Source of the DNA: Candidatus Zixiibacteriota bacterium
Lineage (GTDB): Bacteria; Zixibacteria; MSB-5A5; UM-FILTER-46-8
Length of the DNA: 64,000 nucleotides
Direction: 5' to 3'
Assembly (NCBI GenBank): GCA_014730175.1
Contig: WJIR01000026.1
Span: forward strand, 1,027-65,026
Each line of letters begins with the position of its first letter. Position 1 is the stretch's first letter. Below, in pieces: positions 12,271-32,351 of this stretch. The notes under the pieces are model-generated. The model ran no database searches. It was not told the origin of the DNA and saw only the letters and a program-made list of their open reading frames with translations. The position numbers and the translations under genes were made by a program.

Positions 12271-12404
12271 CCTCTGGCGCGAAGAGCGGGCAGGTCAGGG
12301 GATTATTTCCTGACATGGCTTCGGTGGGAATCCGAATTACTCTCTCGAGAGGGTATGTATTGCTTCGTCGCTATGCTACACTCAATGAGCGTTGAATCCG
12401 GGGG

Positions 12405-13091
12405 TTAAATTGTATCCTCCACTATCTTGCCGTAATGCATTTTCACTACTCGTTCAGCCACTCTCTCGGCAACCTCCAAATTATGCGTTACAATTATTAC
12501 AGTCAGCCCCTTCTTTTTTAGGTCCACAAGGATATCGGCAACCGCTTTAGCATTCTGCTGATCAAGATTTCCGGTAGGTTCGTCCGCAAATAAAATCTCC
12601 GGTTTTTTTACCAGAGCACGCGCAATAGCTACCCGCTGCTGTTCGCCTCCCGATAAATCCGAAGGTTTGTGTTCCATTCGATCTTCGAGCCCCAACAGTG
12701 TTAGTGTTTTTACAGCTTGTTCTTCCCTGTCTCGCTTCGATGTGTTATTGAAATAAAGAGCCATCTCTACGTTCTTCAGTGCGGTCTGATTCGGTATCAG
12801 ATTAAACGATTGAAACACCATTCCCACATATTTCGCTCGATATTGCGACAACTGCCGATGAGATAAGTTTCCGAGATTTCTCCCGGCGACTTCAATGGTT
12901 CCGGAAGTTGGGGAATCCAAACCCGCCAGCAGGTTAAGCAAGGTGGTCTTGCCGGAACCTGATGTACCAACCACAGCTACAAGCTCCTCCTTAATGACTT
13001 CCAAGGAAATGCTATCCACTGCCCTTACCTTATTTGTGCCTCGGGTATAAAAGCGGCATAGGTTGCTGGTATGTATGAATGGTCGGTCCAT
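12405..13091 (-). CDS. ABC transporter ATP-binding protein (LolD/MacB/FtsE-like), no adjacent permease
   Basis: Walker A (GTSGSGKTT), ABC signature ([15 protein letters not shown]) and Walker B are all present. Confidence 0.85.
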
Positions 13092-13305
13092 AAAGTCAAA
13101 TTAATATATCTTTTTTGACGGATATCGGTCAATAATTGTTTCCAATTTTAAAATAACCTTCACAATCCCATAGTATCCAGGTCAGCTCAACTTTCAAAGA
13201 CATGGTTGTAAACAGTCCCTGCTTTGTAGTACAGCAATTGATAATTTATTATCAATGATTACCAACTTGAAATCAGGCGCTAACAAAACTTTTACAAAAT
13301 ATCCC

Positions 13306-13334
13306 TTGACAACTGGTCAGGATTACACTATATA
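13306..13334 (+). promoter_or_regulatory. Putative sigma70 promoter (TTGACA-N17-TATATA) about 260 nt upstream of the 13593 CDS
   Basis: Hexamers read from the sequence in a 500-bp AT-rich intergenic region. Confidence 0.4.
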
Positions 13335-13529
13335 GTCCTGCGAATGACAATGAATGTCATTCTATGGTAGTAAATTTGTTGTTAAAAAACTAATTTTCAG
13401 GAACTTTATGATAAGTCGCGTTGTTGTAGCGACTGTAGTAGGTATATTTTTCTACATAAATTTTTATAATTCAAAATAGTAATAATATATATATATTATA
13501 ACATACGTATAATCATTTTTTTACTAAAA

Positions 13530-13550
13530 GTAACCATTTAAAATGGTTAC
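13530..13550 (+). promoter_or_regulatory. Perfect 21-bp palindrome (GTAACCATTT-A-AAATGGTTAC), candidate operator 40 nt upstream of the start codon
   Basis: Exact inverted repeat seen in the sequence. Confidence 0.4.
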
Positions 13551-13592
13551 ACCATTACTAAAACACAAGAAGAACAAAGGAGAAAAAAACTA

Positions 13593-15557
13593 ATGCAGAA
13601 ACAGATTGTAACCCTTATAGTTGTAGCCTTAGCTGCATTTACAATGCTATTGGCCCCTTCATCGGTATTGGCAATAGATGGGGCAAAACCAGTACCGGGC
13701 GTCGCTCCGGGTAACTATGATCCGACTGGTGTAATCGGTTCGATTGAACCTTTCGCCAGCGAAATCGGAATGATAAGTTGGTCGATCGATGGATTGGGAA
13801 CCACCGCTTCCTCAGGTATTATCAAAGTAGATAAGCCGGAAGATGCCACAGTTCGCAGCGCTTACTTTTTCTCAGCCACTACCGGTTTCACGGATTATCA
13901 GCTTCAGGACGGCGACGTTCAGTTGGAAGGCAACAACATCGTATGGGATGACGAGTTGATGAGTAGCATCGAATCGTACAACTATATGGCTGATGTTACC
14001 GATATCGTCGCTCCCATAGTCGATGCGGCTCCGGCGGGAATCGTTGAGTTGACTATCAATGAGAACAACTCTGCAAATATCGACGGCGAAGTATTGGCAG
14101 TGATATTTGATGATCCCAATGTAACCGAAACCGCTACGATAGCTTTGTTATTCGGCGCCCAGGCAATTGAAGGCGATGAATTTAATATCGGATTGGCTGA
14201 GCCGGTAACCGAGGAAACCAATGTTTATATGTCATTAGGTATTTCTTATGGTTATCAGCCTACCGAACAGGTAAGCCACATCGATGTTAATGGAGAACGT
14301 TTAACTTCCTCTGCTGGTGGCCAGGATGACGGCGAAGACAACAACGGCGCGTTGATCACAGTCGGCGGCATTGATGATAGCATGGACAATCCTCCGGATC
14401 CTTATGGCGAACCGGATACTCCAAGATACGACGATGAGTTATATACTTTGAATCCTTATCTGGAAATTGGCGAGACTTCTATAAATGTTTACACCATCAA
14501 TCCTTCGGATGATGACAATATATTCTTCGGCGCATTTCATATCTCCGGCGCTGCCGTTGTCGGTGAAGGTGCGGTGTTGACACCGGAATATGCCGAGAAG
14601 AATGTTGGCGAGATGCACATGATCACCGCTACTCTGCAGGACGATGATGGTAACCCGATCGCTGATCGCGAAATCAATTTCCACATCGTGGATGGTCCCC
14701 ATTCACCCATGGATTACACTGATGCCACAAACGAAGAAGGTAAGGCTTTCTTCGAATATGAAGGAATGATGGAAGGCAGCGATATAATTATGGCTGATTT
14801 CATCAATTCTCAGGGTGAATACCAGGAAGCTGAAAATGAAGCGGTTGTCGATTGGATTACCGGTGGAGATCTCTGTTGTGATGTAGAGCTTTCCCCGGAT
14901 GATGGCGATCCTGTCATCGTTAATCCTCCGGACATCTTCAGGTTCACTGCTACTCTGTGCAATCCCAATGAAGAACCGATCTTTACCGATTTCTGGACCG
15001 TAACCGAAAGCATGGGTGAACGTTGGGAAATCTTGGTCCATACCGATGTAGAAGTCGGCGGCGACGATTGCAGAAACGGACGCTTCATTCAGTGGATCTG
15101 CGGACAGATTGAGCCTTGCGTTTACGTCTACACTGCTTATTGCGGTGACTATGAAACCGGTGAAATCTGCGATTCCGCCAGTTTCGAAGTAGTTGTCTTA
15201 AACGGTGAAGGAATCACTAATATGGGTAATGTTGAAGAGCTGTGGCTCTCTGAAGGAGGCTTCAATAGCGAAGAATTCGCGATGGAATCCCCGGCCGAAT
15301 ACACCTTAAGCTCCAACTATCCAAATCCGTTTAACGCTCAGACCAACATCAGCTTCTCCCTACCCGAAGCCGGTAATGTTCGTTTGAACGTTTATAACTT
15401 ACTCGGACAGAATGTAGCTACTCTGGTTGATGGTAATATGTCTGCCGGCCAGCATACTGTAAACTGGGATGCTGCCAATCATGCCAGCGGCGTATACCTT
15501 TACAAACTGCAAGCTAACGATCAGGTAATCACCAAGAAGATGCATCTGCTGAAGTAA
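13593..15557 (+). CDS. Secreted T9SS cargo protein with shared Cys-rich domain and C-terminal T9SS sorting domain
   Basis: Signal peptide (LAPSSVLA), a Cys-rich module (CCDVELSPDDGDPVIV...AYCGD...CD), and a T9SS CTD (NYPNPFNAQT...LNVYNLLGQ...VNWDA...SGVYLYKL). Confidence 0.8.
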   Translation: MQKQIVTLIVVALAAFTMLLAPSSVLAIDGAKPVPGVAPGNYDPTGVIGSIEPFASEIGMISWSIDGLGTTASSGIIKVDKPEDATVRSAYFFSATTGFTDYQLQDGDVQLEGNNIVWDDELMSSIESYNYMADVTDIVAPIVDAAPAGIVELTINENNSANIDGEVLAVIFDDPNVTETATIALLFGAQAIEGDEFNIGLAEPVTEETNVYMSLGISYGYQPTEQVSHIDVNGERLTSSAGGQDDGEDNNGALITVGGIDDSMDNPPDPYGEPDTPRYDDELYTLNPYLEIGETSINVYTINPSDDDNIFFGAFHISGAAVVGEGAVLTPEYAEKNVGEMHMITATLQDDDGNPIADREINFHIVDGPHSPMDYTDATNEEGKAFFEYEGMMEGSDIIMADFINSQGEYQEAENEAVVDWITGGDLCCDVELSPDDGDPVIVNPPDIFRFTATLCNPNEEPIFTDFWTVTESMGERWEILVHTDVEVGGDDCRNGRFIQWICGQIEPCVYVYTAYCGDYETGEICDSASFEVVVLNGEGITNMGNVEELWLSEGGFNSEEFAMESPAEYTLSSNYPNPFNAQTNISFSLPEAGNVRLNVYNLLGQNVATLVDGNMSAGQHTVNWDAANHASGVYLYKLQANDQVITKKMHLLK

Positions 15558-15614
15558 TTATAACAGCAAAACTCTCGAGGAAGGAAATGTACCTACCTCG
15601 AGGAAGAAAGTTGA

Positions 15615-15645
15615 GCGCCGGGCAGCACGTCCGGCGCTTTTTATT
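15615..15645 (+). terminator. Rho-independent terminator (GCGCCGG-loop-CCGGCGC followed by TTTTTATT)
   Basis: GC stem plus T-run 58 nt after the stop of the 13593-15557 gene. Confidence 0.65.
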
Positions 15646-15756
15646 GCCTTTGAAAATAGCAGTTAACTTTAACTCATATCATTAGCTAATAATTTTGCCA
15701 GTTGTCAAAAATCGATTTTGTATTATATTGCCTTTGAATAATCTTCTTTATGAAAG

Positions 15757-18339
15757 GTGGTAAAAATGCACAGGTTACTGATGATTTTAATATTCTTTAC
15801 GCCCCTGCTATCATTCGCAGGAAATATCGATCCCAACGGCGATATTCCCTTGCATAGAATTTTAGCCGAACGAGGGCAAACGGTAGATGAGATACTCGCG
15901 CAAAATACATTTGATTTTTCGCAGAATGATATTGATCCCGGTGAAATTCCGGAGGGCGATTACCTGGGATGGTTGGCTTTCACGCCAGATGGCGAGAGAA
16001 TACTGGTAACTAATCGAGTAACGGATAATGTAACGGTATTTGATTGGTCAACTATGGAAGTGTTGACCAATATCAATGTGGGTACTTATCCGGGTGGAAT
16101 CGGTGTAACCGATAATTATGCAGTGATCGCCTGTGCTTTTAGCGATGAAGTATACATTATCGATTTGGATGATTACAGCGTTGCCGGCATATTCGAAACC
16201 GGCGAGCAGCCCTGGGTGGTGAGGATAAGTCCCGACGGTAGAAAAGCTTATGTTGCCTGCGATATCGATAATGTCTGCGAAGTAATAGATTTGGAGAACT
16301 TAATCCACACGGACACATTAGAAGATTTCCCGATCTGGTTGGTGAGTTGGGGATTTAATTCCGAAAATGCACGTAATACTTTTAGTTTTTCTCCGTTTGA
16401 GATTACGCCGGACGGGAATCATATAATGGTAAGCGATGGCGAAACGAATGTTCATTTTATAAATGTTGATACCGGCAACATAGATTACACGGTTGAAGGA
16501 ATCGAAAGCTGCTGGACATTAGGCCTATCCGGTGACGGTTCAAAATCAGTTGCGGTTAGTTCTACTGATCCTGCTGTAGCATATCAGATCGACCTCACCA
16601 CATATCAAGTCACAGGAAGTGTAAGCATAAGCGGATACAGGTTAAGTACTTATGAAGTTGCCGTTAATCAGGATGGTTCCAAAGCTTTCCTGGGGATAAA
16701 CAACAACTCCAGCGCATTCGTTCGATTCGAGACCTCTGATTTCACGGTTTTGACACAAACATATACACCATTCTGGATCGGAGTATCACCGGATCATTCT
16801 TTGGCAATTGGAGGGCAGTATCGCTTTTCGATCCTTGATTTCGAAACCGAGACTTTGCTGGGGCAATACCAGGGTAATTCTCAGTATTACGGAGCGGTAT
16901 CCAAGGTTGGATTGCGCGCGGTGGGACATGATCCATATCGCCATGAAGGTGTTTATTTCTACGATTACACCGATGATTATCCCGATTATCTGGGGACAAC
17001 CAATTCCGGACTGGACCCCGAAGGCGACGCTCCCAGACGATTAGCGATAGCGCCGGATGGGTCTAAAGTGGTTGCCGCTAATGTTCTTTCCGATAATATT
17101 TCCATTATAAGTCTGAGTACGTATGAAGTTGAAGCTATCCTACCGATCGGCGACAGAGTGCAAAATGTTGCTATCACTTCGGATTCACGCTGGGCGGTAG
17201 TGTGTGGATTCAATTCCAATTCCGTATTTATCATTGACCTTGAAACCAATACAATAGCAGCGGAAGTTTCGGCAGGTTCTCGCGCTGGCGTTGTTAGCAT
17301 AGCTCCCGATGACAGCTATGCCTATGTTGGTAATATATCAGCTAATACTTTATCGGTCATAGAATTGGATGGGGAAAACAGTTTTGAATATAATGAGTTA
17401 CCTATCGGTGTAATTGGTGTGGTCTGGGCGGCGTTTGGTGTCAGCAGCGATGTTGAATACAGCCCCGATGGCGAACATGTTCTGGCGACTGCCTCATTCG
17501 ACGACCTTGTTTACGTATTCGATACCGAATTCCACGAAATAGTCGCCACACTTCCCACCGGGGATTTTCCGATTCAGATAGCGTTTGACGGAACCGGTGA
17601 ATATGCGGTAGTAACCAATTACTTCACTGATAATTTCACATTGATGCATATCGATGGTGAGAATTCGACCTCAATCGGAACATATTACAGTGGCGATGCT
17701 CCATTAAGGCTGGCATATAATTCTATTTTGGACGAAATAGGTATCTGTAACTACAGCGATAAAACCCTGGTAAACATCGATCCTCAAACCGGAGATCTTA
17801 TTGACACCGACTATTATACTAACCACGGCAGTTTGATTCAGGCGATGTTCGATGAGAACGGAGAGCCAATCGTTCTTGTAAGCAGCGGAAATCTACCTGC
17901 GGCGTTGATCAAAGCCGATGATGTGGTTGAGATGCCTGCCGGTCCGACATACTTCGATTATAACAGAGAGGCTCAGGTGGCTGCCGTTTCCATGCCGGGA
18001 CCCGATTTTGTAACTATCGTCAGTTGGCAGGAAACCGGAATAGGCGAGGTGAAGGATATCGATTTAAACTTACCGACAGAAATAGCCATCGGAGACTGTT
18101 ATCCCAATCCATTCAACCCGGAGGTGAATATCGAGTTTCATCTGCCGACTGCCGGTGATATTTCTTTGCGGGTGCTCAACCTTACCGGTGAAAAGGTAGT
18201 AACGTTGGCTGAAGGGAATTATACCGCAGGATCGCATAGAATCCTTTGGGATGCCTCCGATCTTGCCAGCGGCATATATTTACTTAAATTGAGCAACGGA
18301 TCGATATCTACAACCAAGAGGATCACATACATAAAGTAA
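15757..18339 (+). CDS. Secreted beta-propeller repeat protein (YVTN/lactonase-like repeats) with T9SS C-terminal sorting domain
   Basis: Signal peptide, repeated roughly 40-aa DGSK/DG..AYV repeats, and a C-terminal CYPNPFNPEVNIEF...VLNLTGE...WDASDLASGIYLLKL T9SS CTD. Confidence 0.8.
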   Translation: MVKMHRLLMILIFFTPLLSFAGNIDPNGDIPLHRILAERGQTVDEILAQNTFDFSQNDIDPGEIPEGDYLGWLAFTPDGERILVTNRVTDNVTVFDWSTMEVLTNINVGTYPGGIGVTDNYAVIACAFSDEVYIIDLDDYSVAGIFETGEQPWVVRISPDGRKAYVACDIDNVCEVIDLENLIHTDTLEDFPIWLVSWGFNSENARNTFSFSPFEITPDGNHIMVSDGETNVHFINVDTGNIDYTVEGIESCWTLGLSGDGSKSVAVSSTDPAVAYQIDLTTYQVTGSVSISGYRLSTYEVAVNQDGSKAFLGINNNSSAFVRFETSDFTVLTQTYTPFWIGVSPDHSLAIGGQYRFSILDFETETLLGQYQGNSQYYGAVSKVGLRAVGHDPYRHEGVYFYDYTDDYPDYLGTTNSGLDPEGDAPRRLAIAPDGSKVVAANVLSDNISIISLSTYEVEAILPIGDRVQNVAITSDSRWAVVCGFNSNSVFIIDLETNTIAAEVSAGSRAGVVSIAPDDSYAYVGNISANTLSVIELDGENSFEYNELPIGVIGVVWAAFGVSSDVEYSPDGEHVLATASFDDLVYVFDTEFHEIVATLPTGDFPIQIAFDGTGEYAVVTNYFTDNFTLMHIDGENSTSIGTYYSGDAPLRLAYNSILDEIGICNYSDKTLVNIDPQTGDLIDTDYYTNHGSLIQAMFDENGEPIVLVSSGNLPAALIKADDVVEMPAGPTYFDYNREAQVAAVSMPGPDFVTIVSWQETGIGEVKDIDLNLPTEIAIGDCYPNPFNPEVNIEFHLPTAGDISLRVLNLTGEKVVTLAEGNYTAGSHRILWDASDLASGIYLLKLSNGSISTTKRITYIK

Positions 18340-18491
18340 TAAGAGATGGCTGCAGGTCACCGGCGCTATCCCCACGCATACCGTCAGCGTTCCAGGGCTG
18401 CCCGGCGGACTCTTAAGTTAAAATAATCTGCAGCGTACCATGAATGATGCAGGACGGGCTGAAACCCGTCGTAATTAAAAATAGTGATCCT

Positions 18492-18511
18492 CCCCGCGTT
18501 AAAACGCGGGG
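18492..18511. terminator. Hairpin CCCCGCG-ttaaaa-CGCGGGG between convergent genes
   Basis: Inverted repeat seen in the sequence; no clear U-tract follows it. Confidence 0.35.
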
Positions 18512-18550
18512 TCTCAAAAACTCATCCAGGCTTTTCCTTTTTGTTAATAG

Positions 18551-18576
18551 CTTGGCGGGAGGAAACTCCCGCCAAG
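18551..18576. terminator. 11-bp stem hairpin with GAAA tetraloop (CTTGGCGGGAG-gaaa-CTCCCGCCAAG); probable bidirectional terminator
   Basis: Perfect inverted repeat 22 nt from the stop of the minus-strand 18598 gene, with T/A-rich flanks. Confidence 0.5.
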
Positions 18577-18597
18577 CATTTTGAGCCTTAATTTACT

Positions 18598-20154
18598 CTA
18601 TTTGAGTAGTGTGATTTGCTTTGCGATTACCTTATCCCCGGCTCTGAGCCTGTAGAAATAAAGACCGCTCGAATAACCGGAAGCATCCCAGTTGACACTA
18701 TGGTATCCAGCTTGCATATAGCTGTCTGCAAGTGTTTCAACTTCCTGACCGAGCAGATTATAAATCGAAAGTTTAACATTTGTATCGGAAGGAAGATTGA
18801 ATCGTATATTGGCTGAAGCGTTGAACGGATTGGGGTAACTTTCCATAGACATCGCATTCGGTGTTTCCGCTTGTTGCTGAGAATTCCATCCACCACTCAA
18901 TGTCCAATCGGAGCTCCCGCCATTGCGAGGAGCGCCTATCACATTGAAGTCGAACATAGCCGTATCACAGGCAACGTTGCTCTTCTCCCCGCAGAATGCT
19001 ATATAGTCATACGTACCGGTAGGCGCATAATTGGGAACCTGTTGAACCAGATGGGCATCCAGAGTCTGGCCGATATCAACGAAAGTACCGGAGAAATCCC
19101 AAAGTTCATAAAATTCGCCTTGGAAGTTCACCCCGACCCAGATATCGGTTATCATCGGTTCATCGTCAGGATTGACGATTATTCCGGTCAACCCGAACTC
19201 TCCACCCGGGGGAACATCGACCGGATAGTTATCAGGAATCATATCCACCTGAGGGCAGACATCACATTGAACCGGTCCGTACTCGCTCAATTTAGTATCT
19301 ACATCCGCAGAAGTAGTTGTTACCGTGCTGTCAGGAATATAGAAGTCCATTGTCATCGTATCAGGCCAAGTTCCGAATGTCAGCGTACCGTTCTCATCGA
19401 GAATTAGGTCGAGATCGGCAAAATCACCGGTTGCTTCATATCCATCACCAGTATTGATAACTCCGCCTTCGAACACTATCAACGTATCAGTGTCCCAGGC
19501 AACCTTCGCGACAATATTAGCGGTATCCGAACCATAAATTCCCTGATCCGGATCGTTTAACGCGGTAAGGCTAAATTCGTCAAAATAAAACCTTGCCTGC
19601 AAATGAAGACTGTCCTGCACCTCGCTATCTTTCTCCTCGTCTCTCCATTCGGTCGATCCTTGAAACTTCGCCTCTCCTTCGGCATCCGCCTCGCATCTGG
19701 AAGCATAGGTGAAAAGATTGTGATCCACCTTACCTACCAAGCGATCACTATCTTCCCCAAATTCTTCCCACCATGCCTTTACATAGGCGTATGCGCGCGC
19801 CGCGTGCGTACAGGGGAACGGCCCTTCTTCGGATTCAGCGATTACATCAGGGAAATACGCTTCATCATCGCCGGAGCCGGAAGCGCCGCAACACCAGTAA
19901 CCTGCATCAGCCCATGCGTATGTTTCCGCAATCGGGTCTGGTCCTTCAAGTATCGACCATATTCCGACTCCGATTCCAACGACAGTCACCGTGATAGCAA
20001 CAACTGTTAATACTGCCGGTTCTTCGCCATCATTTTGAGTTTCCGGAAGTTCGTGCTGATGTGGCTGCGATGCCAGAGCAATGTCCGGAGCGGTAATTGC
20101 TCCGCACAAAAACACAATCACGAGCAGCGACAAAAGATAAATGTTCTTTTTCAT
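18598..20154 (-). CDS. Secreted T9SS cargo protein with shared Cys-rich domain and T9SS sorting domain
   Basis: Signal peptide (MKKNIYLLSLLVIVFLCGAITA), a Cys-rich module (CDVCPQVDMIPDNYPVDVPPGG...AFCGE...CD), and a CTD (SYPNPFNASANIRF...SIYNLLGQ). Confidence 0.8.
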   Translation of the reverse strand: MKKNIYLLSLLVIVFLCGAITAPDIALASQPHQHELPETQNDGEEPAVLTVVAITVTVVGIGVGIWSILEGPDPIAETYAWADAGYWCCGASGSGDDEAYFPDVIAESEEGPFPCTHAARAYAYVKAWWEEFGEDSDRLVGKVDHNLFTYASRCEADAEGEAKFQGSTEWRDEEKDSEVQDSLHLQARFYFDEFSLTALNDPDQGIYGSDTANIVAKVAWDTDTLIVFEGGVINTGDGYEATGDFADLDLILDENGTLTFGTWPDTMTMDFYIPDSTVTTTSADVDTKLSEYGPVQCDVCPQVDMIPDNYPVDVPPGGEFGLTGIIVNPDDEPMITDIWVGVNFQGEFYELWDFSGTFVDIGQTLDAHLVQQVPNYAPTGTYDYIAFCGEKSNVACDTAMFDFNVIGAPRNGGSSDWTLSGGWNSQQQAETPNAMSMESYPNPFNASANIRFNLPSDTNVKLSIYNLLGQEVETLADSYMQAGYHSVNWDASGYSSGLYFYRLRAGDKVIAKQITLLK

Positions 20155-20634
20155 TTTACTCTCCTTGCTTGGATTTTTATTTCTCAGAATCAGGTTCTAT
20201 ATAAACAAGGTGGGTAACCTCCTCGTTACAAATCACGAATCCCGACTAATATTGTAAACTATAAAAATAAGAACCGATTGTCAACAAATAAAATAATTTA
20301 TGTTATTTATATAATCGGCGAGAGGGTATTGGAGGAAAATAGTTTCACTAACATCCTGTTAAGAAGTTATTAATGTTCGCGATTCGGACTATGACGATTC
20401 CACTCCATGATAGTATACAGGAGAGAGATAATGAAATATAGGGGGATTATGATAATGGCCATGATGAAGAATAACGGTTCATCGCTTCCATGCGCATCAA
20501 AGTAGGACTTGAATGTTCCGTAAATGAAATCGTGAAGGATTACCGCCACATTCCAGGCAGCTATGATCAGCAGGATTCTCTTCCAGGCTTACAGCAGATA
20601 TTTTCCATAGAATCTCCTCGTTACAGCCGCATTG

Positions 20635-21186
20635 TTAATTCCGCGGAGATCTTCTGTGTTCCCTTCGCCATTTATAGGGCGGAATAAATTCTTTGACCTC
20701 TGAATTCTCAGCCGTCTCCAGTATTCGCTCCGCGAGTTCCGGGAATCCGTTATCGCCATAGTATGAAACAGTCTCATAAGCCAGTCCCGCTTCGATCAAT
20801 TGTATGGAGAGCAGCTCCCCATCCACGAACACGTGCGCCAGCATTCTACCATAACGATCATCTTGATAAGGTAAATATGAGATCACCTCCGCATTATGGA
20901 GTAAAGCCGCCGTATAAGCGGACGCTTCTCTCCCAAAGGATTGATCCTCGTGGAATCCATGTTCTGGATGCGAAATCTCAGGCGTATCCATACCCAGTAC
21001 CCTTATCCCCTTGCCCCTGTACTCGAAAGTATCGCCATCATCGAGTATTATCTCCGATTTCTCGATCAAGATCACCTCCGATCCATCAGGTATGAATACT
21101 ATATCCTTTTTAACTGGCGATCCGCAGGAACTGAATATTATGGAGACAATAAGCAGGATAAATATTTGTTTGGAAATTATCTTCAT
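20635..21186 (-). CDS. Thermonuclease (staphylococcal-nuclease-like, SNase) lipoprotein
   Basis: Lipobox IFSSCGS after the ATG at 21186. The SNase core contains GKGIRVLGMDTPE...FGREA...RMLAHVFVDGELL. Confidence 0.7.
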   Translation of the reverse strand: MKIISKQIFILLIVSIIFSSCGSPVKKDIVFIPDGSEVILIEKSEIILDDGDTFEYRGKGIRVLGMDTPEISHPEHGFHEDQSFGREASAYTAALLHNAEVISYLPYQDDRYGRMLAHVFVDGELLSIQLIEAGLAYETVSYYGDNGFPELAERILETAENSEVKEFIPPYKWRREHRRSPRN

Positions 21187-21315
21187 TCTTTTCCTCGATT
21201 GAACACACTCTTTGATTGTAATTAACGGGCAATATAATGCCCTCACGGAAGGAGGCAAAATAAAAAGAGGAGGGAATTAGAAATCCCTCCTCCTGCAAAT
21301 AGATCTGTATTCTTT

Positions 21316-24279
21316 CTATTTCAACAAAGTCATCCGTTTGGTGAATACCTTATCCCCTGCAGTAAGTTTATAGAAGTATACTCCGCTGGAATAGTTAGAG
21401 GCATCCCAGGCTACCGAATGCTCTCCGGCATCATTGTATCCGTCAAACAATGTTGCCACGTGCCGTCCTGCGAGATTGTACACGTCCAATTTCACGTTCG
21501 CACTCTTAGGTAAGGTATAAGTGATGCTGGTCTGAGCATTGAACGGATTCGGGTAGTTTCCGACCAATGAATATTGCGAGGGAACGGGTTCACCGATAAA
21601 GTCGCCTTCCAAAAACCAGCTATCAGCGGGATTGTTCGTCAAGGCACCGGAAACCGTGAAATCGAATTGCACCGAATCACACTTATCATCCGGACGATCA
21701 CCGCAATAGGCAATGTAAATGTAAGATCCCTGTGGAGCGAATCCCGGTACTTGCTGGTTGGTATGAGCGTTTAGGGTCTGTCCCGGAGCGAGAGAGAGAT
21801 TATTATAACCGAACTGCTGATAAAAATCTCCATCGTGAATGACTCCGCCCCAGACATCGGTTGTAATAGATGTGTCGCAAACATTGCCGATAAAGCCAGT
21901 CAAACCGAAACTGCCGCCCGGCGGTACTATAACCGGATCATCATCGGGGATCATGTCAACATCGCAGCAGCAATCAGGCTGGGGTAGCTCCCATGTAATT
22001 ACGACATCGTCAACATACCATCCGTCTCGGTTAGTCGAGGAATTCGTATCCAGCCTGAACCTCAGGAGAAAGTCTGTAACACCAGCGAAACTGTCAAGAG
22101 AGTGTATCGCCTGTACAAATGATTCCTGCGTGCCGGTTATGGAGCTGCCGATCTGCGTCCAGTTGTTACCGCCATCATCGGAGCCCTCGATGTAAATATA
22201 ATCGGAACCGCTCTGGAGATTATAGCGATGATAGAATGATAGTTGAATGTTCGACGCATCGGTGAAATCCAATCCCGCTTTCATCGCCATCCAGCAGTCC
22301 GCATTATTAGCGTAGTTCCCTTGCGGGCTGTCATGAAAAGCGAGATTACCGGAATTGGAATGTGTTGCCGATAATCCCCATCTATCATTATTACCACCGG
22401 TTTCCCAGTTGAAGGGACCATTTTCGAAATCATCGACAAACTGTGGAGTGGATGCTTCGGTAATGAACCTGTTATTAGGCGCTCCCACCGGATAAACCTC
22501 ACTCAGCCCATTAGTCTTTTCGGCGTAAACATAGTAATAAACAGATTCACCCATTCCCGGTGTTGGGATGTCAGCCGAGTATGTATCCTGATTATTGGTC
22601 ATCTGGATGGAATTGTAATTCTGAGAACCGTTGTGATTCCAGTAAAGAGTCACGCTGGAAGGATTAATTCCCTCCGAACTGGTTATCTCTCCCGAAAAAT
22701 AAGCTTCGTTAAGTGGAGCCACGTAGGGAAGAGGAACCATGTCGAAGACGATATCCCCTTCCGGATGATAAAATATCGCTTTGGTGGTATTAACCACGCC
22801 CCATCCGTAAGTATTATTTGGGCTGTCCGTATTATCCGCGGTCGCCATCAAAGCCTCACGCACCATCATCGGGGTCCAGTTGGGATGAGCCGAAAGTACC
22901 GCACCTGCGCTTCCGCCCACCAACGGTGTTGAAAGTGATGTGCCACTGGCGTCAGTGAATCCGCCGAGGTCATACGGGTTAGCGCAATCGGTGTCAACGC
23001 CTCGAGCAGTCACTTCAGGCTTAGTGCGATCGTCGTAGGTGGGACCGCGCGAGGAAAAACTGGCTATCTCGCCTTCGGAGTTGACCGCGCCGCAGGCAAT
23101 AACGCTATCCCCGTCGGCAGGAGCAATTAGCGAACCGTTACCCATCCAGCCTTCATTGCCCATTGCTGTGCAGACTGCTATACCATTATATGCGGCGAGG
23201 TCTGCGGCAATCGTAACAATCGTTGTGTTACCATCGAGATCGGAATACTCGTAATCTCCCTGGCCTTCATCGAACCAACGGTAACCGAGTGAGGCTGAAA
23301 TCACTTGTGCCCCGATGGAATCCGCCCACAGAGCGGCAGCAGCCCAGTGATCCTCTTCAATATGCCTTTCCTGGGAAACATCCTCGGTTTTTCCCAGCAG
23401 GAACTCCGCATTAAAGGAGGGACCGTAAAGAGAACCGGAATACTCGCCGCCCAGCGCTGACCAGGTCAAAGTTCCATGGTTTGGCTGATCCCAGGGATCG
23501 CCGTTTTCCCAATCGGTGTCCCCATCGCCCATTACGAAATCCCATTCCGCAATCAAGCGGTTGTCATTGAATATCTCATCGAATGCTACATGACCTTTGC
23601 GGTAACCGGTGTCGAGCATGCAGATAATCACGCCGGTTCCGTCGAATCCCAGCTCATGAGCCGGAGGAACATTTATCTGAAGTAGCTGCGATTCCGAAGG
23701 TCCATAATTGTAGCTGTAATCGCTGATATCGCCGAATCTCGAATATCTATCAGCGCCCTCGATCCTGTCTATCTCTTTCCCCAGCGCCTTTACCCTCTCT
23801 ATTCTCCGAACGAAAGGCAAGGATGAAATAGCCTCAATATTCCCTGTATCGATGTATGCGGAGACAGCGTTCAACCATTTTACGCGGTGCACTATTTCCG
23901 CACCTGAGTTTTCTGTCTCGTTAACATATTCATTATTCACAGGCAGATCGAGAAAATCGACAAGATTATCTCCACGTGTTTTAGCGCGCCTCTTTAACGC
24001 AGCTTCGGTAAGTGCATTCTCAGCTTCAGCCAAAGCATTATCCAGCTCATGCTGAGATGATATTCCCTTGTCCGTGAAATAAATCCAGACCTTTACTCTT
24101 TCGGTATCGAATTTATCAAGTAATTGAGGTTCGATAACCTGCTCAGATTTGGGAAGATAGAGTTTTCTCTGGGGTGCGGCTTTATCTGCGGAAAAACCAG
24201 CGGATGCCGCCCATGTTATTGAAAGCAGCATAATAACTAATATGACACTCCAGCGAGAACATGACATATTTTTGAACAT
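21316..24279 (-). CDS. Secreted subtilisin-like serine protease (peptidase S8) with shared Cys-rich domain and T9SS sorting domain
   Basis: Catalytic triad motifs DTGY (Asp), HGTLT (His) and GTSLSTP (Ser). A signal peptide, the CCCDVDMIPDDDPVIV...AYCGD module and the NYPNPFNAQTSITY...VYNLAGR CTD are also present. Confidence 0.9.
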   Translation of the reverse strand: MFKNMSCSRWSVILVIMLLSITWAASAGFSADKAAPQRKLYLPKSEQVIEPQLLDKFDTERVKVWIYFTDKGISSQHELDNALAEAENALTEAALKRRAKTRGDNLVDFLDLPVNNEYVNETENSGAEIVHRVKWLNAVSAYIDTGNIEAISSLPFVRRIERVKALGKEIDRIEGADRYSRFGDISDYSYNYGPSESQLLQINVPPAHELGFDGTGVIICMLDTGYRKGHVAFDEIFNDNRLIAEWDFVMGDGDTDWENGDPWDQPNHGTLTWSALGGEYSGSLYGPSFNAEFLLGKTEDVSQERHIEEDHWAAAALWADSIGAQVISASLGYRWFDEGQGDYEYSDLDGNTTIVTIAADLAAYNGIAVCTAMGNEGWMGNGSLIAPADGDSVIACGAVNSEGEIASFSSRGPTYDDRTKPEVTARGVDTDCANPYDLGGFTDASGTSLSTPLVGGSAGAVLSAHPNWTPMMVREALMATADNTDSPNNTYGWGVVNTTKAIFYHPEGDIVFDMVPLPYVAPLNEAYFSGEITSSEGINPSSVTLYWNHNGSQNYNSIQMTNNQDTYSADIPTPGMGESVYYYVYAEKTNGLSEVYPVGAPNNRFITEASTPQFVDDFENGPFNWETGGNNDRWGLSATHSNSGNLAFHDSPQGNYANNADCWMAMKAGLDFTDASNIQLSFYHRYNLQSGSDYIYIEGSDDGGNNWTQIGSSITGTQESFVQAIHSLDSFAGVTDFLLRFRLDTNSSTNRDGWYVDDVVITWELPQPDCCCDVDMIPDDDPVIVPPGGSFGLTGFIGNVCDTSITTDVWGGVIHDGDFYQQFGYNNLSLAPGQTLNAHTNQQVPGFAPQGSYIYIAYCGDRPDDKCDSVQFDFTVSGALTNNPADSWFLEGDFIGEPVPSQYSLVGNYPNPFNAQTSITYTLPKSANVKLDVYNLAGRHVATLFDGYNDAGEHSVAWDASNYSSGVYFYKLTAGDKVFTKRMTLLK

Positions 24280-24569
24280 AATTCCTCCTCGGGGAAGTTT
24301 AGTTGAAATTAGTTGTCATCGGTTAGTTTGATTTGAGAAGAAAAACCGGATTCGGTGACAAGTTTATAATAGCTTATCACGTCTATTACCGAATTGTTTC
24401 TATTTGCTTAAGGTAAAACAAATATAATGAATTTTGTTCCGAATGGAAAGCTATTTTCAATACGGTTTATTTTTGAACCCGCTCTGATTTTACAACCACC
24501 AATAATACAATTCAGGTGAAATAACCGCGCGAAGCAAAGAAGCCTCTTAGGTGTTGACAGGATATGAGC

Positions 24570-25808
24570 TTATATATCAATCAACTTATCCCCCGCCGTA
24601 TATTCAGCGACATTAACGGCGTCAATATTCATTAAAGAAGAGATAACATCCTTGATTTTAAGAGAGTTATTCTCGATAAGCTCGATTTTCTTGCGAATAT
24701 CTGCGGGGAGTTCTTCTTCGCTCTTGAGTAACAGGAGCTGGGCTGCTCCCAATACCACCGAAAGTTGATTGTTTACATGATGATTTACGGTAGCCGCTGT
24801 TAACCTGACCAAACCGGCTTTATCCGCATCCAGAAGTTTTCTATAACCAGCGAGGATTAAATGCATCGAAGCGGAATGAGCGAAATCGGGATTAAACCGA
24901 TGCACCAAATCATCGATATTCTTCTCGACTTCTATAGGCGGTCTTCTGAAAAATCCGATGATGCAGAAACCGAAACTATTCTTTTTTCCCTTTAGAGGAT
25001 AAAAGAATAACTCGCGCGCATCATATTTAGCCAGTTCGGAAATCAGCGATTGGGGAAGGTCGGCTTTTGTTAAGGACGCACACCATTTTGACTGGACCAC
25101 CCTCATATCAAACTGTGCTCTCGGGATGGTCAGGTCTGCGCTGAACTCCGACTGAATAGCTCCGGAAGTATCTTCGGAACTGAAGAATAACTCGGCATTG
25201 CTCTCACCCGGGAATAGATAGCCTATTGCACACATCACCGGCGCCGCAATCTTGGTTATTTCTTTAGTAAACAATTCAATCGTGTGCCGCGGGCTTTTGC
25301 TTATTTTAATAGTCCCAACGGAATCCGGTTTACCGATGCCGATTTCCCTTGCCGCCGCTGAGGAGATTAAGTTTACAAATATATCGATTAGATCCTTCTC
25401 GGACTTCTGTAACTTACGGGAATCACGCGATAGGATTACCAGCAGCCCATAGTTAAAATTACCGAATATCAATCCTCTGCATTTTGCTTTCAGCTTATCT
25501 TTCCCGGCAAGGATCAAATCGGCGTTATCTATATCCAGTTTGTAATTTTCTCCGGCTATATGCTCGGTCGACCGGCGATAATTATTAAGAATATTATTTA
25601 GCTCTCCCAGATATTCCTCATTGCCTACTGTCGAAATGGTCGGTTCTCCCGATCCGTCAATCACCAAACAACCTACGGAGCACTCGGGTAGCTGTTTGGC
25701 AAGTAATTCACACACCTCCCCTGTACCGACGCTAATAGGTAATTCAGCGATAGCCCTTGATGCGAGCGAGACGGCTTCGAACTTGGATGCAGGAACAATT
25801 TCGTTCAT
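24570..25808 (-). CDS. GAF-domain sensor protein with a C-terminal histidine-kinase DHp-like domain but no ATPase domain
   Basis: The C-terminus (VNHHVNNQLSVVLGAAQLL...) resembles a HisKA H-box helix and the ORF ends about 60 aa later. The N-terminal two-thirds is GAF-like. Confidence 0.55.
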   Translation of the reverse strand: MNEIVPASKFEAVSLASRAIAELPISVGTGEVCELLAKQLPECSVGCLVIDGSGEPTISTVGNEEYLGELNNILNNYRRSTEHIAGENYKLDIDNADLILAGKDKLKAKCRGLIFGNFNYGLLVILSRDSRKLQKSEKDLIDIFVNLISSAAAREIGIGKPDSVGTIKISKSPRHTIELFTKEITKIAAPVMCAIGYLFPGESNAELFFSSEDTSGAIQSEFSADLTIPRAQFDMRVVQSKWCASLTKADLPQSLISELAKYDARELFFYPLKGKKNSFGFCIIGFFRRPPIEVEKNIDDLVHRFNPDFAHSASMHLILAGYRKLLDADKAGLVRLTAATVNHHVNNQLSVVLGAAQLLLLKSEEELPADIRKKIELIENNSLKIKDVISSLMNIDAVNVAEYTAGDKLIDI

Positions 25809-26463
25809 TTCTATAACACAGCTAAATTTTTCCTCTGTTCCTTGATACGGATTATCTCCACCGTTGTTCGTGCTATTGACGGAGCAGGTTTAATACCCCG
25901 AAAAATCACCAGAGGATTTACCAATTGCACTTACCCCTTTACAGGTTCGGAGTAGATCCCTTACATGATCTCCATAGCCGACTTATCATTTGCCGGGTTC
26001 CAGCGTAAAGGGAAGAAGACTTATAATGCTCGAAAAATAGAGATTAATGCTCGGATGTCAAGTAGAATATAGGTTTGAGCATTATACATCGGTTCTTTGG
26101 ACCATTAACCACAAGTAAATCATTGAGTTTCAAAATCATTTTTGTTAATCTCTGATAGCAATATCTGCCTGACAAAACGCCTACTTTCATACAAACGAGA
26201 TGAGATTCGACAAATATTGAAATCAGCGACACCAACTTTTCCTTGACAACAACCGCCGAACTCGTTTCTTAATATATATAGAATTTGGTCATTCGATATG
26301 TTTGGCCGAAATTTCTTGACCTGTCCCGAACTATGCGGTGTTTTCCAGTGGGTATAATCGCAACATTAGCTCAGGAAAGCGCTATAGTAAATCTTCATGT
26401 ATCTTAGCGATCCAGGAGCATTAATATTTAACTAATGACGCGGATTTTTCAGCGAGGTTAGAA

Positions 26464-27621
26464 ATGAGACACACGGTTTTTACAGTACTGTGTTGCCTGA
26501 TTATATATGGGTGCGGTAACGCAATGCAGGTGATTGATTTCGAAGGACTACCGGATTATTATTATTATTACGGGGGTAATGAGAATATCGATGGTTACTA
26601 TCCCGGGCTTGAGTTCGGACCACACGCAGTGATACTGGACAGCGTTATCTACGGATATAATTCCGAAGGATACCCACCTCATTCCGGTAACTGCGTCCTG
26701 GCGACAATCGGCGCTTCCTATACGCGAGTTGATTTCTCTATTCATACCAATCATGTCGGAATGTGGTACACTTCGTATTTTACCTTTCATGTTGAAGCGT
26801 ACGATGGCAATGATAATCTTTTAGTTTCCACTACGGCTCCCGCAAATTACGGAAGCACAGATTTTGTCGAGGTGAATTCGGTAGGGATTGCTTATGTTAT
26901 ATATCATAATTCGGGAGATCTATTCGTTATCGATGATTTCGAATACGAGGATGAGCCCTGCTGTCTGGATATCGATATGGAGCCGGACGAAGACCCGGTA
27001 ATTGTCAGCCCGGGGGAATCATTCTGGTTTACCGGCTCTATTTTAAATATGTGTGTATATCCGGTCGTGACGGATATCTGGTTGATGGTGGATGTTCCCG
27101 GATATGGACTGTATGGTCCCCTGGCAAGAAACCTTAATCAAACCGTAGAACCCGGGCAGATCTTGACCCGCCACATGGCTCAAGCGGTTCCCCTCGAAGC
27201 TCAACCGGGTGTCTATAGTTATGTCGCTTATTGTGGTGATTTCCCGAATTATCTGTGTGATGGAACTTCGTTTCCATTTACGATTGTAGAAGGTTCGTCA
27301 TCAGAAGGCAGCAGCACATGGCATAATAGAACCGCTTTTGATTTCAAGGCGGCTCCCGATAAATCAAGTCTGATGGACAGTTACCCCAATCCTTTCAATT
27401 CCCGAACAAACATCCAATTCGAGCTAAGCTCCGAATGTCATGCACGACTGGAGATTTATAACATGTTGGGGCAAAGAATAACGGTTCTTGTAGACGAATA
27501 CTTAAATGCAGGTGAGTACTCGGTGCAATGGGATGCGGGCGACCTTCCCAGCGGCATTTATCTGGCAAGACTTTATGAGGATGGCAAGACTACTACCGTT
27601 CGGATGAGTTTAATAAAGTGA
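26464..27621 (+). CDS. Secreted T9SS cargo (lipo)protein with shared Cys-rich domain and T9SS sorting domain
   Basis: Signal/lipobox (LIIYGCGNA), a Cys-rich module (CCLDIDMEPDEDPVIV...AYCGD...CD), and a CTD (SYPNPFNSRTNIQF...IYNMLGQ). Confidence 0.8.
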   Translation: MRHTVFTVLCCLIIYGCGNAMQVIDFEGLPDYYYYYGGNENIDGYYPGLEFGPHAVILDSVIYGYNSEGYPPHSGNCVLATIGASYTRVDFSIHTNHVGMWYTSYFTFHVEAYDGNDNLLVSTTAPANYGSTDFVEVNSVGIAYVIYHNSGDLFVIDDFEYEDEPCCLDIDMEPDEDPVIVSPGESFWFTGSILNMCVYPVVTDIWLMVDVPGYGLYGPLARNLNQTVEPGQILTRHMAQAVPLEAQPGVYSYVAYCGDFPNYLCDGTSFPFTIVEGSSSEGSSTWHNRTAFDFKAAPDKSSLMDSYPNPFNSRTNIQFELSSECHARLEIYNMLGQRITVLVDEYLNAGEYSVQWDAGDLPSGIYLARLYEDGKTTTVRMSLIK

Positions 27622-27638
27622 GGAAACCTATTTGGGGC

Positions 27639-28613
27639 TTACTTTAACACAGGTCTGGGTGAATGCTCAGCACCAACTGAATCCGGTTTTCCTGATTTCG
27701 CAAGATAATCAGAAACGGTGGAGAAATTGAACTCCGAGAAAAGCTTTCGTAATTTTGGCAACGTTGTATGAAGGTTGGTATAATGCCGGAACCTGCTGTT
27801 AAGGCTACTGCGGATTTTGGGCTGGTGCGGATCAACTTCCCAGGGATGTACATATACTACCGACGGTATCAACCTTTCGTTTAACTTGCGAATAATCCTT
27901 CTTGTGAACCAGTAAGGGAATAGCCGGAGATAACCTCCGCCAGCCGCCGCAATGCGCGTGTTAAAAAATTTCGTGGTTGTTGCCGGTATCTCTGTGATGT
28001 ACTCACCGCATTTCAGTTCCACATCGAATATAGTAGCGGGGGCGCTTTGGAAACCATACCGGTCATGCTTTATAGGGAAAACGCTGGATGAGTAGGTAAA
28101 GCCGAGTTCATGGAGAATGTCCCATGCCCATTGAGACTTTTCAACAATCGAAAAACTGGGCGCTCGGTAACCTTTAACCGCGCTGCCGGTAATCTCTTCG
28201 AGAATCGCTTTGGCTTTCATAGTGTCTTCACGAAATTCGTCCGGAGACAGGTTGTATATAAGGCGATGAGCGTAGCTGTGGCATCCAACTTCATGTCCCC
28301 TGTTGTGTATTAAAAGAACTATTTCCGGAAATCGTTCTGCAATCCATCCCAGGATGAAAAAAGTGGCTTTTATATCATAGTCATCCAGCAACTTCAGTAG
28401 TAGGCTGGTATTAGAAATCACCCTGCTCTCGAATTTATCCCAATCGGCTCGATTAACTTCATTTGCAAAACCGTTAACATGAAAATAATCCTCGACATCG
28501 ACGGTGAACATATTTGTGAATCCGGAACGCGACGCTCTGCCGGTATATGGGCCTGGGGAGTTACGTTGATATAATGATTCAGTAGTCTGCTTACTATGGT
28601 TGTTCTTATTCAT
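27639..28613 (-). CDS. Polysaccharide deacetylase (NodB-homology; resembles the FTVDVEDYFHV N-terminus of the PEP-CTERM-locus subfamily)
   Basis: The MFTVDVEDYFHV motif and a NodB-type fold signature are present. The true start may be the internal Met at residue 35. Confidence 0.7.
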   Translation of the reverse strand: MNKNNHSKQTTESLYQRNSPGPYTGRASRSGFTNMFTVDVEDYFHVNGFANEVNRADWDKFESRVISNTSLLLKLLDDYDIKATFFILGWIAERFPEIVLLIHNRGHEVGCHSYAHRLIYNLSPDEFREDTMKAKAILEEITGSAVKGYRAPSFSIVEKSQWAWDILHELGFTYSSSVFPIKHDRYGFQSAPATIFDVELKCGEYITEIPATTTKFFNTRIAAAGGGYLRLFPYWFTRRIIRKLNERLIPSVVYVHPWEVDPHQPKIRSSLNSRFRHYTNLHTTLPKLRKLFSEFNFSTVSDYLAKSGKPDSVGAEHSPRPVLK

Positions 28614-28689
28614 ACAATTTCTTAGTCTGTATCATTCAAAAGTTTTAACATCGGTAGCTAAAGGTTTAAGCGCCTCAGGCGTACTTGTG

Positions 28690-28805
28690 CTTCCAACGTC
28701 TGTTTGTGATCTTCAATTCCAATCCGCAAATGATCTAATTCCATTAAATCCCCGAAGGACAAGCTTTCGGTTACCGAATTGTGGTTTTCATGAATTATCC
28801 GGATT
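28690..28805 (-). repeat. Copy F of the intergenic repeat family, inverted orientation
   Basis: TTAAATCCCCGAAGGACAAGCTTTCGGTTACCGAATTGTGGTTTTCATGAATTATCCGG is the reverse complement of the 5' module of copies A and B. Confidence 0.5.
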
Positions 28806-28925
28806 TGCACCTAACCGCTGGCTGTTGCGTATTAAAGTGAGCGGATGAATACCACCGTTGTTAATAATAATAATTGGGAATTTCATTATTCCCTGGTTAC
28901 ATTAGGAATATCGGCAGATGACACA

Positions 28926-29450
28926 CTACTTTTGACGGGATTTTGATATCGTATTGATTTGATATGTAACAAAATAACCCGGGGGAAAACCGAATATAAT
29001 TCCCAGCGTAAATCTTATCGATTCGGGCACTTGCCAAAAACCTAACGCTCCGGATATTATATCGGTTAAATTGATGATTACTGCAACTATAAGCCAAAAC
29101 AGGATACGCTGATTTACCGTGTTTATCCTCACCGATCCGGCGATCACCCACCCAATTACCAAACCAGTATAAATCCCTGAACATCTGTAGCAGATTATCA
29201 AAGATTGCGAAAGAAGAGTTGGGCAGCGGGATGATTTTTGATGGCAATTGAATGAATATAGATAGCGGATAAAATCCGCGATCTCGGTAAAACCGTTTAA
29301 CATGAATAGGAATTCCGCTGCGGCAAGCGCTAACGGCAACGAGAAGAACAGCAGCAGTATATACATTATGTAGCGCCGTAATAATCTGCTGACTATCTCT
29401 CCAGTGGGATAGAGAACCCTATTCAAATAAATCGTAATAGTTTCCACCAC
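28926..29450 (-). CDS. DUF2085-family membrane protein
   Basis: Conserved CHQ...RCPT...CYRCSGIY motif between TM helices, as in DUF2085. Confidence 0.5.
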   Translation of the reverse strand: MVETITIYLNRVLYPTGEIVSRLLRRYIMYILLLFFSLPLALAAAEFLFMLNGFTEIADFIRYLYSFNCHQKSSRCPTLLSQSLIICYRCSGIYTGLVIGWVIAGSVRINTVNQRILFWLIVAVIINLTDIISGALGFWQVPESIRFTLGIIFGFPPGYFVTYQINTISKSRQK

Positions 29451-29469
29451 CGCGGCGCCTGAATCTAAT

Positions 29470-32347: not shown

Positions 32348-32351
32348 CAGA

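Follow-up and report, generated by a model that had tools for sequence, protein, structure and literature searches.

The region between positions 13593 and 28613 of a 64-kb window (64,000 nucleotides of contig WJIR01000026.1 from a Candidatus Zixiibacteriota bacterium) is best read as a cluster of genes that are transcribed independently and encode exported proteins, which carry type IX secretion system (T9SS) type-A C-terminal domains (CTDs), and not as a foreign island. We put the probability of this reading at about 0.75. Zixibacteria is a phylum of the FCB group. The cargo set, as predicted from sequence, consists of an S8 subtilase, a double beta-propeller protein, a multi-immunoglobulin (multi-Ig) adhesin-like protein, and two proteins of unassigned function. 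The cargoes are numbered 1 to 5 by position in Table 1, with the subtilase as cargo 4. Open reading frame (ORF) calling over the whole window, which is meant wherever we speak of the window below, recovered all eight ORFs named in a first-pass annotation of this DNA at the positions given there. The longest ORF of the nuclease reaches 21258, the ATG used in that annotation being at 21186. The current NCBI annotation already calls the five cargoes T9SS type-A sorting-domain proteins.

Sorting domains, clustering, and a shared module

The five T9SS CTDs proposed in the first-pass annotation are all confirmed. Both Por_Secre_tail (Pfam ID PF18962; 40.1 to 46.8 bits, cut-off 27) and TIGR04183 (39.2 to 49.9 bits, cut-off 23) match every cargo above their curated cut-offs at the extreme C-terminus, where the domains stop 4 to 7 residues short of the stop codon. 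Type-A CTDs are defined by these two models, by the motifs A to E, and by a seven-strand Ig fold (PMC10202324). In the alignment, all five share YPNPFN (motif B), SG(V/I/L)Y or SGxYxxxL (motif D), and a terminal (L/I)K (motif E). The domains fold into a seven-strand Ig-like beta-sandwich that matches a solved T9SS CTD structure, and the PDB sequence search gave weak matches to the Flavobacterium johnsoniae CTD chains 8glj and 8glk. A profile built from the five CTDs found no sixth copy in the six frames of the window.

These domains might instead be FlgD-Ig or E-set Ig-like domains that carry no T9SS signal here, acting as spacers or belonging to another export or anchoring route. Matches to FlgD_ig do overlap the CTDs, two of them marginally above the cut-off of that family, but the FlgD_ig scores (17.6 to 29.4 bits) are lower than those of Por_Secre_tail and TIGR04183 in all five cargoes. 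The strictly C-terminal position, the conservation of motifs B, D, and E, the structural match to the solved CTD with the weak matches to 8glj and 8glk, and the correlation of CTD presence with T9SS core genes across genomes (PMC10202324) likewise speak for a sorting function. On the other side stand the second hydrophobic helix of cargo 3, the lipobox of cargo 5, the poor documentation of T9SS outside Bacteroidota, and the putative status of the machinery in this genome. Taken together, we consider Ig-like domains without a sorting role to be very unlikely.

N-terminal hydrophobic signal sequences, judged by inspection and hydropathy and not with a dedicated predictor, are found in the five cargoes and the nuclease, and positive charges precede the hydrophobic segment in each of the five cargoes.

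All five CTD genes lie within 8 consecutive genes of the approximately 50 in the window (p ~1e-3, corrected for position). The clustering could still be a chance neighborhood of abundant CTD genes with no biological meaning. If CTD genes make up at least 8 to 10% of the genome, such a run is expected about once per genome, and the genes here lie on mixed strands, each with its own promoter region and terminator and with no evident operon. Moreover, a homologue of cargo 1 in another metagenome-assembled genome (MAG) is the sole such gene amid the housekeeping genes sdh, lpxD, and bamA. The corrected p value argues against chance, as does an independent contig from another Zixibacteria MAG, on which six CTD genes stand in a row, among them the cargo 3 homologue P0002. 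A paralogous module in four of the five cargoes, described below, points to local or repeated duplication of a cassette. We therefore give mere coincidence only a slim chance and favor a genuine cluster. Strong terminators follow cargo 1 (15613-15639) and the S8 gene (21294-21265), suggesting that the genes of the cluster are separate transcription units, and the cargo 1 and S8 genes are predicted to be monocistronic.

Cargoes 1, 3, 4, and 5 have about 230 C-terminal residues in common at 33 to 51% identity, extending the similarity beyond the CTD. The additional part is a Cys-rich module of about 120 amino acids (aa) ahead of the CTD with the motifs CC..D(V/I)DM.PD, TD.W, and AYCGD....CD. Cargo 2 lacks this module and has only the CTD in common with the other cargoes. 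AlphaFold2 (AF2) predicts the module as a confident beta-sandwich (pLDDT >90), for which the PDB offers only generic FnIII or Ig tandems as similar structures, and the conserved Cys pairs suggest disulfide bonds by analogy with Bacteroidota. The cassette of module and CTD is also fused to M14, C1, S8, beta-helix/NosD, FG-GAP, and DUF5122 domains, and the proteins bearing it are, where named, all from Zixibacteria. Because the cassette is fused to so many different N-terminal domains, the sequences point to domain shuffling as the route by which the cargo repertoire would grow.

A further-reaching proposal, which we regard as unlikely, takes three statements jointly: that the Zixibacteria sorting unit is the cassette of about 230 aa, that the cargo 1 ectodomain is a new family, and that the cargo 3 family follows an unusual route. 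Under this proposal, the cassette (module, linker, and CTD), and not the type-A CTD of about 75 aa alone, may be the functional T9SS sorting unit, and it could have a role of its own, for example, in recognition, surface anchoring, or folding control.

Composition, synteny, and the 8.4-kb indel

The first-pass annotation had proposed looking for a deviation in GC content and codon usage across the region, and there is none. The genes of the region have 46.3% GC compared to 46.4% in the rest of the window (p=0.47), and the codon-usage distance is not raised (0.134 versus 0.161), which holds for cargoes 1 to 3 as well. GC at the third codon position (GC3) is a little below that of the rest of the window (47.3% versus 50.9%, p=0.02). 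The base composition of the cluster is native.

The gene order, for which a comparison of synteny had also been suggested, was compared with that of a single close relative from the GTDB species set (contig CAZLVS010000051.1, here L001), with about 84% nucleotide identity. By blastn, L001 is collinear with the window at 3156-12192 and 20637-33085. The gene order of L001 in the tblastn search is thyX, ribonucleotide reductase (RNR), staphylococcal nuclease-like (SNase) lipoprotein, S8, an extra 300-aa ORF, the HisKA-only regulator, cargo 5, the deacetylase, DUF2085, DUF4013, the cyclase and, farther on, recN. The 8.4 kb at 12193-20636, with a LolD-like gene and cargoes 1 to 3, are absent from L001, which has 365 bp of unrelated sequence instead. 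The other half, 20637-28620, is present and collinear, and its SNase, S8, regulator, cargo 5, and deacetylase proteins share 77 to 90% amino acid identity with their counterparts, compared to 75 to 96% for the housekeeping neighbors. The description of the whole region as accessory or lineage-specific thus finds support for 12193-20636 only; since L001 keeps the half from SNase to deacetylase in order, variability is shown for just one half of the region.

These data bear on whether the whole 15 kb could be a horizontally acquired genomic island, that is, an accessory secretome cassette from another lineage. Such an origin would agree with the absence of the 8.4-kb part from the syntenic site in L001, with a partial repeat resembling a miniature inverted-repeat transposable element (MITE) at the left breakpoint, and with the very AT-rich flanking intergenic region 13092-13592. 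Homologues of cargoes 1 and 2 are, in addition, found elsewhere in unrelated contexts, those of cargo 2 in a metagenome scan with 49 to 55% identity and no neighbors in common. However, the composition does not deviate, cargoes 1 to 3 included, synteny is kept in the other half, which diverges like its housekeeping neighbors, and Zixibacteria also supply the nearest homologues of the cargoes, as they do most of the named near-homologues. We found no tRNA, no integrase or transposase among the Pfam matches of the region, and no att-like direct or inverted repeats of at least 12 nt flanking the 8.4-kb segment. Acquisition of the region as an island is therefore quite improbable, and we retain a native cluster as the better description.

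The left breakpoint of the 8.4-kb indel directly follows the RNR terminator (12159-12186), and the right one falls on the stop codon of the SNase gene; the site is a convergent intergenic one. The left breakpoint coincides with a half copy of a quasi-palindromic intergenic repeat (Table 1), which resembles a MITE or a repetitive extragenic palindromic (REP) element. Full copies measure about 170 to 190 nt, with terminal inverted repeats of approximately GGATAATTCATAAAA...TTTATGAATAATCC, and the repeat matches no Rfam family. One full copy occupies the gap between the deacetylase and DUF2085 genes in the window and is found on the opposite side of the deacetylase in L001. A palindromic element of another kind, GAGTGTTGAAAAACCTG...CAGGTTTTTCAACACTC, which encloses a GC-rich hairpin, is found in the 365-bp junction of L001 (reverse complement of 8930-9295) and resembles another small mobile or REP-type repeat. 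A second indel lies between the regulator and S8 genes, where L001 has a 1.3-kb insert (8494-9827, corresponding to window 24456-24572). The insert encodes the 300-aa ORF, which has no Pfam match and an E-x-K-like motif (EIGTIEVKV), and its product may be a PD-(D/E)xK nuclease. The taxon labels of the two contigs conflict, as the window proteins are assigned to "candidate division Zixibacteria" (cargoes 1 and 3 are 100% identical to NCBI MAG proteins of that label) and L001 to "uncultured Ignavibacteria bacterium"; probably either label is used loosely.

The LolD-like gene at the left end of the variable segment encodes an orphan ABC ATPase that scores 238 bits with TIGR02211, under the cut-off of 308 bits, and has no adjoining permease. 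We also considered this protein as the gliding- and T9SS-associated GldA and rejected that assignment, the best matches being LolD, MacB, and FtsE-type, all below cut-off.

Two long AT-rich intergenic regions had been described as the boundaries of the region. The first, 13092-13592 (501 bp), is indeed AT-rich, and no other intergenic stretch of the window has a GC content as low as its 28.5%; it is the divergent promoter region of the LolD-like gene and cargo 1, with promoter-like hexamers on both strands. The second, 25809-26463, is the longest intergenic region of the window (655 bp), but its GC content of 39% is typical, and it lies inside the region and not at the edge, as the divergent promoter region of the HisKA-only gene and cargo 5. 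It contains no convincing ORF and no Rfam match. Across the whole window, the Rfam scan returned nothing at gathering thresholds. A subthreshold match to HgcC RNA at 18471-18575 on the minus strand (25 bits, gathering threshold 50, E 0.025) sits in the GC-rich (50%) convergent gap between cargoes 2 and 3 and probably arises by chance or from a terminator structure. Inside the variable segment, the 480 bp that separate cargo 3 from the SNase gene include an ORF of 59 aa (20370-20549, minus strand) whose product has a hydrophobic stretch (FFIMAIIIIPLYFIISLLYTI); the ORF may encode a small membrane protein or be spurious.

Both flanks of the region are composed of housekeeping genes, with ThyX and a class II RNR on the left and DUF2085, DUF4013, a CHASE2 adenylate cyclase, a CDP-alcohol phosphatidyltransferase, RecN, NadK, GpsA, PlsY, and Der on the right.

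The predicted exported proteins and their neighbors

The assignment of cargo 4 as an S8 subtilase proved correct. The protein matches PF00082 over the full length of the model (positions 1-288/288, E 4e-35), and the catalytic triad read from the sequence is intact, with D223 (DTG), H268 (HGT), and S447 (GTS). A signal peptide and a pro-region of about 190 aa precede the catalytic domain, which is followed by an InhA-like MAM domain (663-762), the module, and the CTD. The identity to the L001 protein is 87%.

The thermonuclease lipoprotein was likewise rightly named, having an SNase domain (PF00565, 52 bits, cut-off 21, E 1e-13), a lipobox, and intact catalytic residues; its NCBIfam match is NucI-like. 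The longest ORF opens with TTG at 21258. Starting at the ATG at 21186, the N-terminus becomes MKIISKQIFILLIVSIIFSSC with the lipobox IFSSC, and because this start yields a lipobox and agrees with the 183-aa ORF of L001 (90% identity), we take it as the sensible one. In a BLASTP alignment with the Staphylococcus aureus nuclease, the identity is 37% over the OB-fold core, the segments DGDT, R, DTPE, and YGR are aligned, and D21, R35, D40, T41, E43, and R87 (S. aureus numbering) are all identical. The protein resembles staphylococcal thermonuclease (Nuc/NucI) in its OB-fold core and in its Ca-binding and catalytic residues, and differs in its lipoprotein signal and its diderm FCB host. As it has no CTD, its surface exposure, if any, would be independent of T9SS.

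The beta-propeller assignment of cargo 2 also holds, with YVTN repeats (TIGR02276, 99 bits) and matches to Lactonase and YNCE. Its signal peptide is followed by two YVTN-type beta-propeller regions and the CTD.

Cargoes 1, 3, and 5 had been described as lacking a recognizable catalytic domain, and the Pfam, NCBIfam, and PDB sequence searches agree; cargo 2 is likewise without a catalytic assignment in these searches. Whether run with single proteins or with family profiles, the PDB sequence searches gave only CTD or Big_1/intimin matches, and nothing credible came from relaxed Pfam scans (E<=10) of the unassigned N-domains and the regulator.

Cargo 1 is composed of a signal peptide, an all-beta ectodomain (about 45-340), a Big_1 Ig domain (342-403), the module, and the CTD. 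The N-terminal 380 aa or so are about 50% identical to "Ig-like domain-containing" proteins of bacteria and archaea, with ectodomain relatives in Archaeoglobus, Methanophagales (ANME), Methanoperedens, Kuenenia, and Delongbacteria. The anchors in this family differ: a type-A CTD is found in 21 of 42 sampled proteins, PEF-CTERM in 2, and a type-B CTD in 1, or no anchor is recognized. Apart from Big_1, no Pfam or NCBIfam model matches, the choice-of-anchor models included. The ectodomain is thus similar to the NCBIfam choice-of-anchor families, in which one ectodomain occurs with alternative C-terminal sorting signals, and yet it belongs to none of the existing models; it may be a new, widespread surface-protein family with interchangeable anchors. 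The AF2 model (pLDDT 84) is all-beta and matches only invasin/intimin Ig domains and the macroglobulin (MG) arrays of complement and alpha-2-macroglobulin, and no solved structure matches the ectodomain past Ig or MG domains. The all-beta model and the Ig/MG matches speak less for an enzyme than for a surface protein of adhesin-like or S-layer-like character. Residues 45 to 420 or so (13593-14850) include many invariant Asp, Asn, and Gly residues, which suggest Ca-binding loops.

Cargo 3 has a second hydrophobic helix (45-71; window 19942-20020, minus strand) between the signal peptide and the N-domain, which is followed by the module and the CTD. The AF2 model is confident for the module and CTD (pLDDT >90) and falls below 50 for residues 18-297. 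The second helix is kept in the full-length homologues P0002 and P0003 (49% and 37% identity), and this family, combining a signal peptide, a membrane helix, and a CTD, may have an unusual topology or maturation route.

Cargo 5 begins with a lipobox-like signal (IYGC), followed by a lineage-specific N-domain of about 145 aa, the module, and the CTD; its identity to the L001 protein is 89%. The signal, LIIYGC with the next residue G, is kept in L001 and resembles a signal peptidase II (SPII) signal. The N-domain (26464-26970; DFE..P..YYYGG...GYPPHSG...IDDFEY) occurs elsewhere only as an internal domain of the Zixibacteria CTD proteins P0242 and P0243.

The remaining genes of the region are not part of the secretome. 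The regulator, the deacetylase, and the LolD-like protein have no hydrophobic or signal segment in the hydropathy analysis, and the regulator and deacetylase, lacking a signal peptide, are placed in the cytoplasm. The name "15-kb secretome island" given to the region therefore suits the five cargoes and the nuclease, with their signal sequences, but not these two proteins.

The gene at 24570-25808 had been called a GAF/DHp regulator, of which the DHp (dimerization and histidine phosphotransfer) part is probable. HisKA (PF00512) scores 21.2 bits in the protein itself, under the cut-off of 26.9 bits, and matches all 37 relatives (best E 6e-13). The H-box is HEINNPL-type, with His343, N346, and N347 invariant. 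The GAF part finds no support, as the N-terminal 320 aa show no GAF (PF01590, PF13185, PF13492), PAS, or REC domain even at E<=10; given GAF in 11 of the 37 DHp relatives, a divergent GAF is possible. HATPase_c is found in none of the 37. The protein ends just after DHp, as do its relatives, and full-length homologues are all 412 to 418 aa long with the same end point. On this pattern, it is best called a HisKA signaling protein without a kinase domain. It resembles HATPase-less HisKA (DHp-only) signaling proteins in the invariant H-box His and the end right after DHp, and differs from DHp-only proteins bearing GAF, PAS, or REC in that none of these is detectable in its own N-terminus.

The polysaccharide deacetylase keeps its name, with Polysacc_deac_1 and DUF3473, and is syntenic with its L001 counterpart (77% identity). 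It matches TIGR03006 over the full length (360.7 bits), passing the equivalog cut-off of 276.2 bits and thereby resembling the deacetylase of the XrtA (PEP-CTERM/exosortase) system. Unlike in that system, no exosortase/XrtA, PEP-CTERM protein, or exopolysaccharide (EPS) gene was seen beside it in the window; the protein is cytoplasmic and has no relation to the T9SS cargo.

Outside the region, an MttB-family methyltransferase gene lies beside genes for corrinoid-binding (B12-binding), Met_synt_B12-like, and homocysteine S-methyltransferase proteins at 42866-46614. A glycine-betaine/choline-type ABC transporter (an OsmF/ProW fusion and ProV) is encoded nearby at 59331-61696. The combination suggests demethylation of a quaternary amine (glycine betaine or trimethylamine [TMA]).

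Table 1. Features of the region and of the window. Positions refer to the window unless given as residues of the protein or as L001 positions.
Feature	Position	Strand	Remarks
Cargo 1	13593-15557	+	654 aa
Cargo 2	15757-18339	+	860 aa
Cargo 3	18598-20154	-	518 aa
SNase lipoprotein	20635-21186 (longest ORF 20635-21258)	-	183 aa
Cargo 4, S8 subtilase	21316-24279	-	987 aa
HisKA-only protein	24570-25808	-	no HATPase_c
Cargo 5	26464-27621	+	385 aa
Polysaccharide deacetylase	27639-28613	-	Polysacc_deac_1 + DUF3473
LolD/MacB/FtsE-type ABC ATPase, orphan	12405-13091	-	ABC_tran E 2e-35
CTD, cargo 1	residues 576-650		type A
CTD, cargo 2	residues 782-856		type A
CTD, cargo 3	residues 440-514		type A
CTD, cargo 4	residues 909-983		type A
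CTD, cargo 5	residues 307-381		type A
Pre-CTD module, cargo 1	residues ~428-575		
Pre-CTD module, cargo 3	residues 300-420		
Pre-CTD module, cargo 4	residues 767-908		
Pre-CTD module, cargo 5	residues 167-306		
MITE-like repeat, full copy	8482-8669	+	
MITE-like repeat, full copy	59160-59341	+	
MITE-like repeat, full copy	28617-28805	-	
MITE-like repeat, copy	L001 5253-5422		
MITE-like repeat, half copy	12198-12268	+	nhmmer E 1.7e-6
MITE-like repeat, half copy	54168-54236		
MITE-like repeat, half copy	54927-54985		

Proposed export route and meaning

The steps of export, CTD recognition, removal by PorU, and release or attachment are described for the Bacteroidota model (PMC10202324). By analogy with that model, the cargoes would reach the periplasm via Sec and then fold, and the SprA/PorV translocon, with the PorLM/KN motor driving it, would recognize the CTD. 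PorU would cut off the CTD, and the mature cargo would be released or would become attached to the surface of the cell. Together with the SNase lipoprotein, the cargoes would most plausibly act in scavenging of extracellular protein and DNA and in surface binding. Across genomes, the distribution of CTD proteins tracks the T9SS core genes with few exceptions (PMC10202324), and because of this correlation, a T9SS in this genome is likely but unproven.

Several observations weigh against a cluster of T9SS cargo genes. SprA, PorV, PorU, and GldK/L/M/N, which the first-pass annotation had named as the components to look for, were found neither in the window nor in the fetched loci. The system has been described as "rarely if ever found outside" Bacteroidetes, and hints from BLAST exist for Chlorobi, Fibrobacteres, and Ignavibacteriae (PMC5837995); our literature search, which included related candidate phyla, found no paper tying Zixibacteria to T9SS. 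The conserved second hydrophobic helix of cargo 3 and the lipobox-like signal of cargo 5 are atypical of type-A cargo. For cargoes 1, 2, 3, and 5, any function is putative, and the 8.4-kb difference from L001 may be either an insertion or a deletion.

The cargoes resemble the type-A CTD cargo of Bacteroidota, such as Porphyromonas gingivalis RgpB, Tannerella forsythia mirolase, and the F. johnsoniae proteins, in combining a Sec signal with a PF18962/TIGR04183 CTD of about 75 aa. The classes of cargo are similar as well, with a subtilase (mirolase is also S8), beta-propellers, and adhesin-like proteins. RgpB has an Ig-like domain directly ahead of its CTD, which is comparable with the module of the cargoes described here. 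The differences are the Zixibacteria host with its putative machinery, the pre-CTD domain, which is a Cys-rich, lineage-typical module of about 120 aa reused with the CTD as a cassette, the extra hydrophobic helix in one cargo, and the lipobox-type signal in another.

The gene cluster is an ordinary case of a known type and not a new system. Its meaning lies in documenting a dense clustering of T9SS-type cargo outside Bacteroidota, in Zixibacteria, and in indicating that indels at intergenic hot spots and repeated use of the module and CTD, not the import of foreign islands, would alter such clusters. The secreted subtilase and nuclease likely serve an uncultured sediment lineage in scavenging protein and DNA outside the cell, and three unannotated extracellular domain families are flagged as being of structural and biochemical interest. 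What is left as new is the reusable pre-CTD cassette, the cargo 1 ectodomain found in both bacteria and archaea, and the odd topology of cargo 3. If the cassette were indeed the sorting unit, type IX sorting would have a variant specific to this lineage, within a phylum for which no T9SS has been described.

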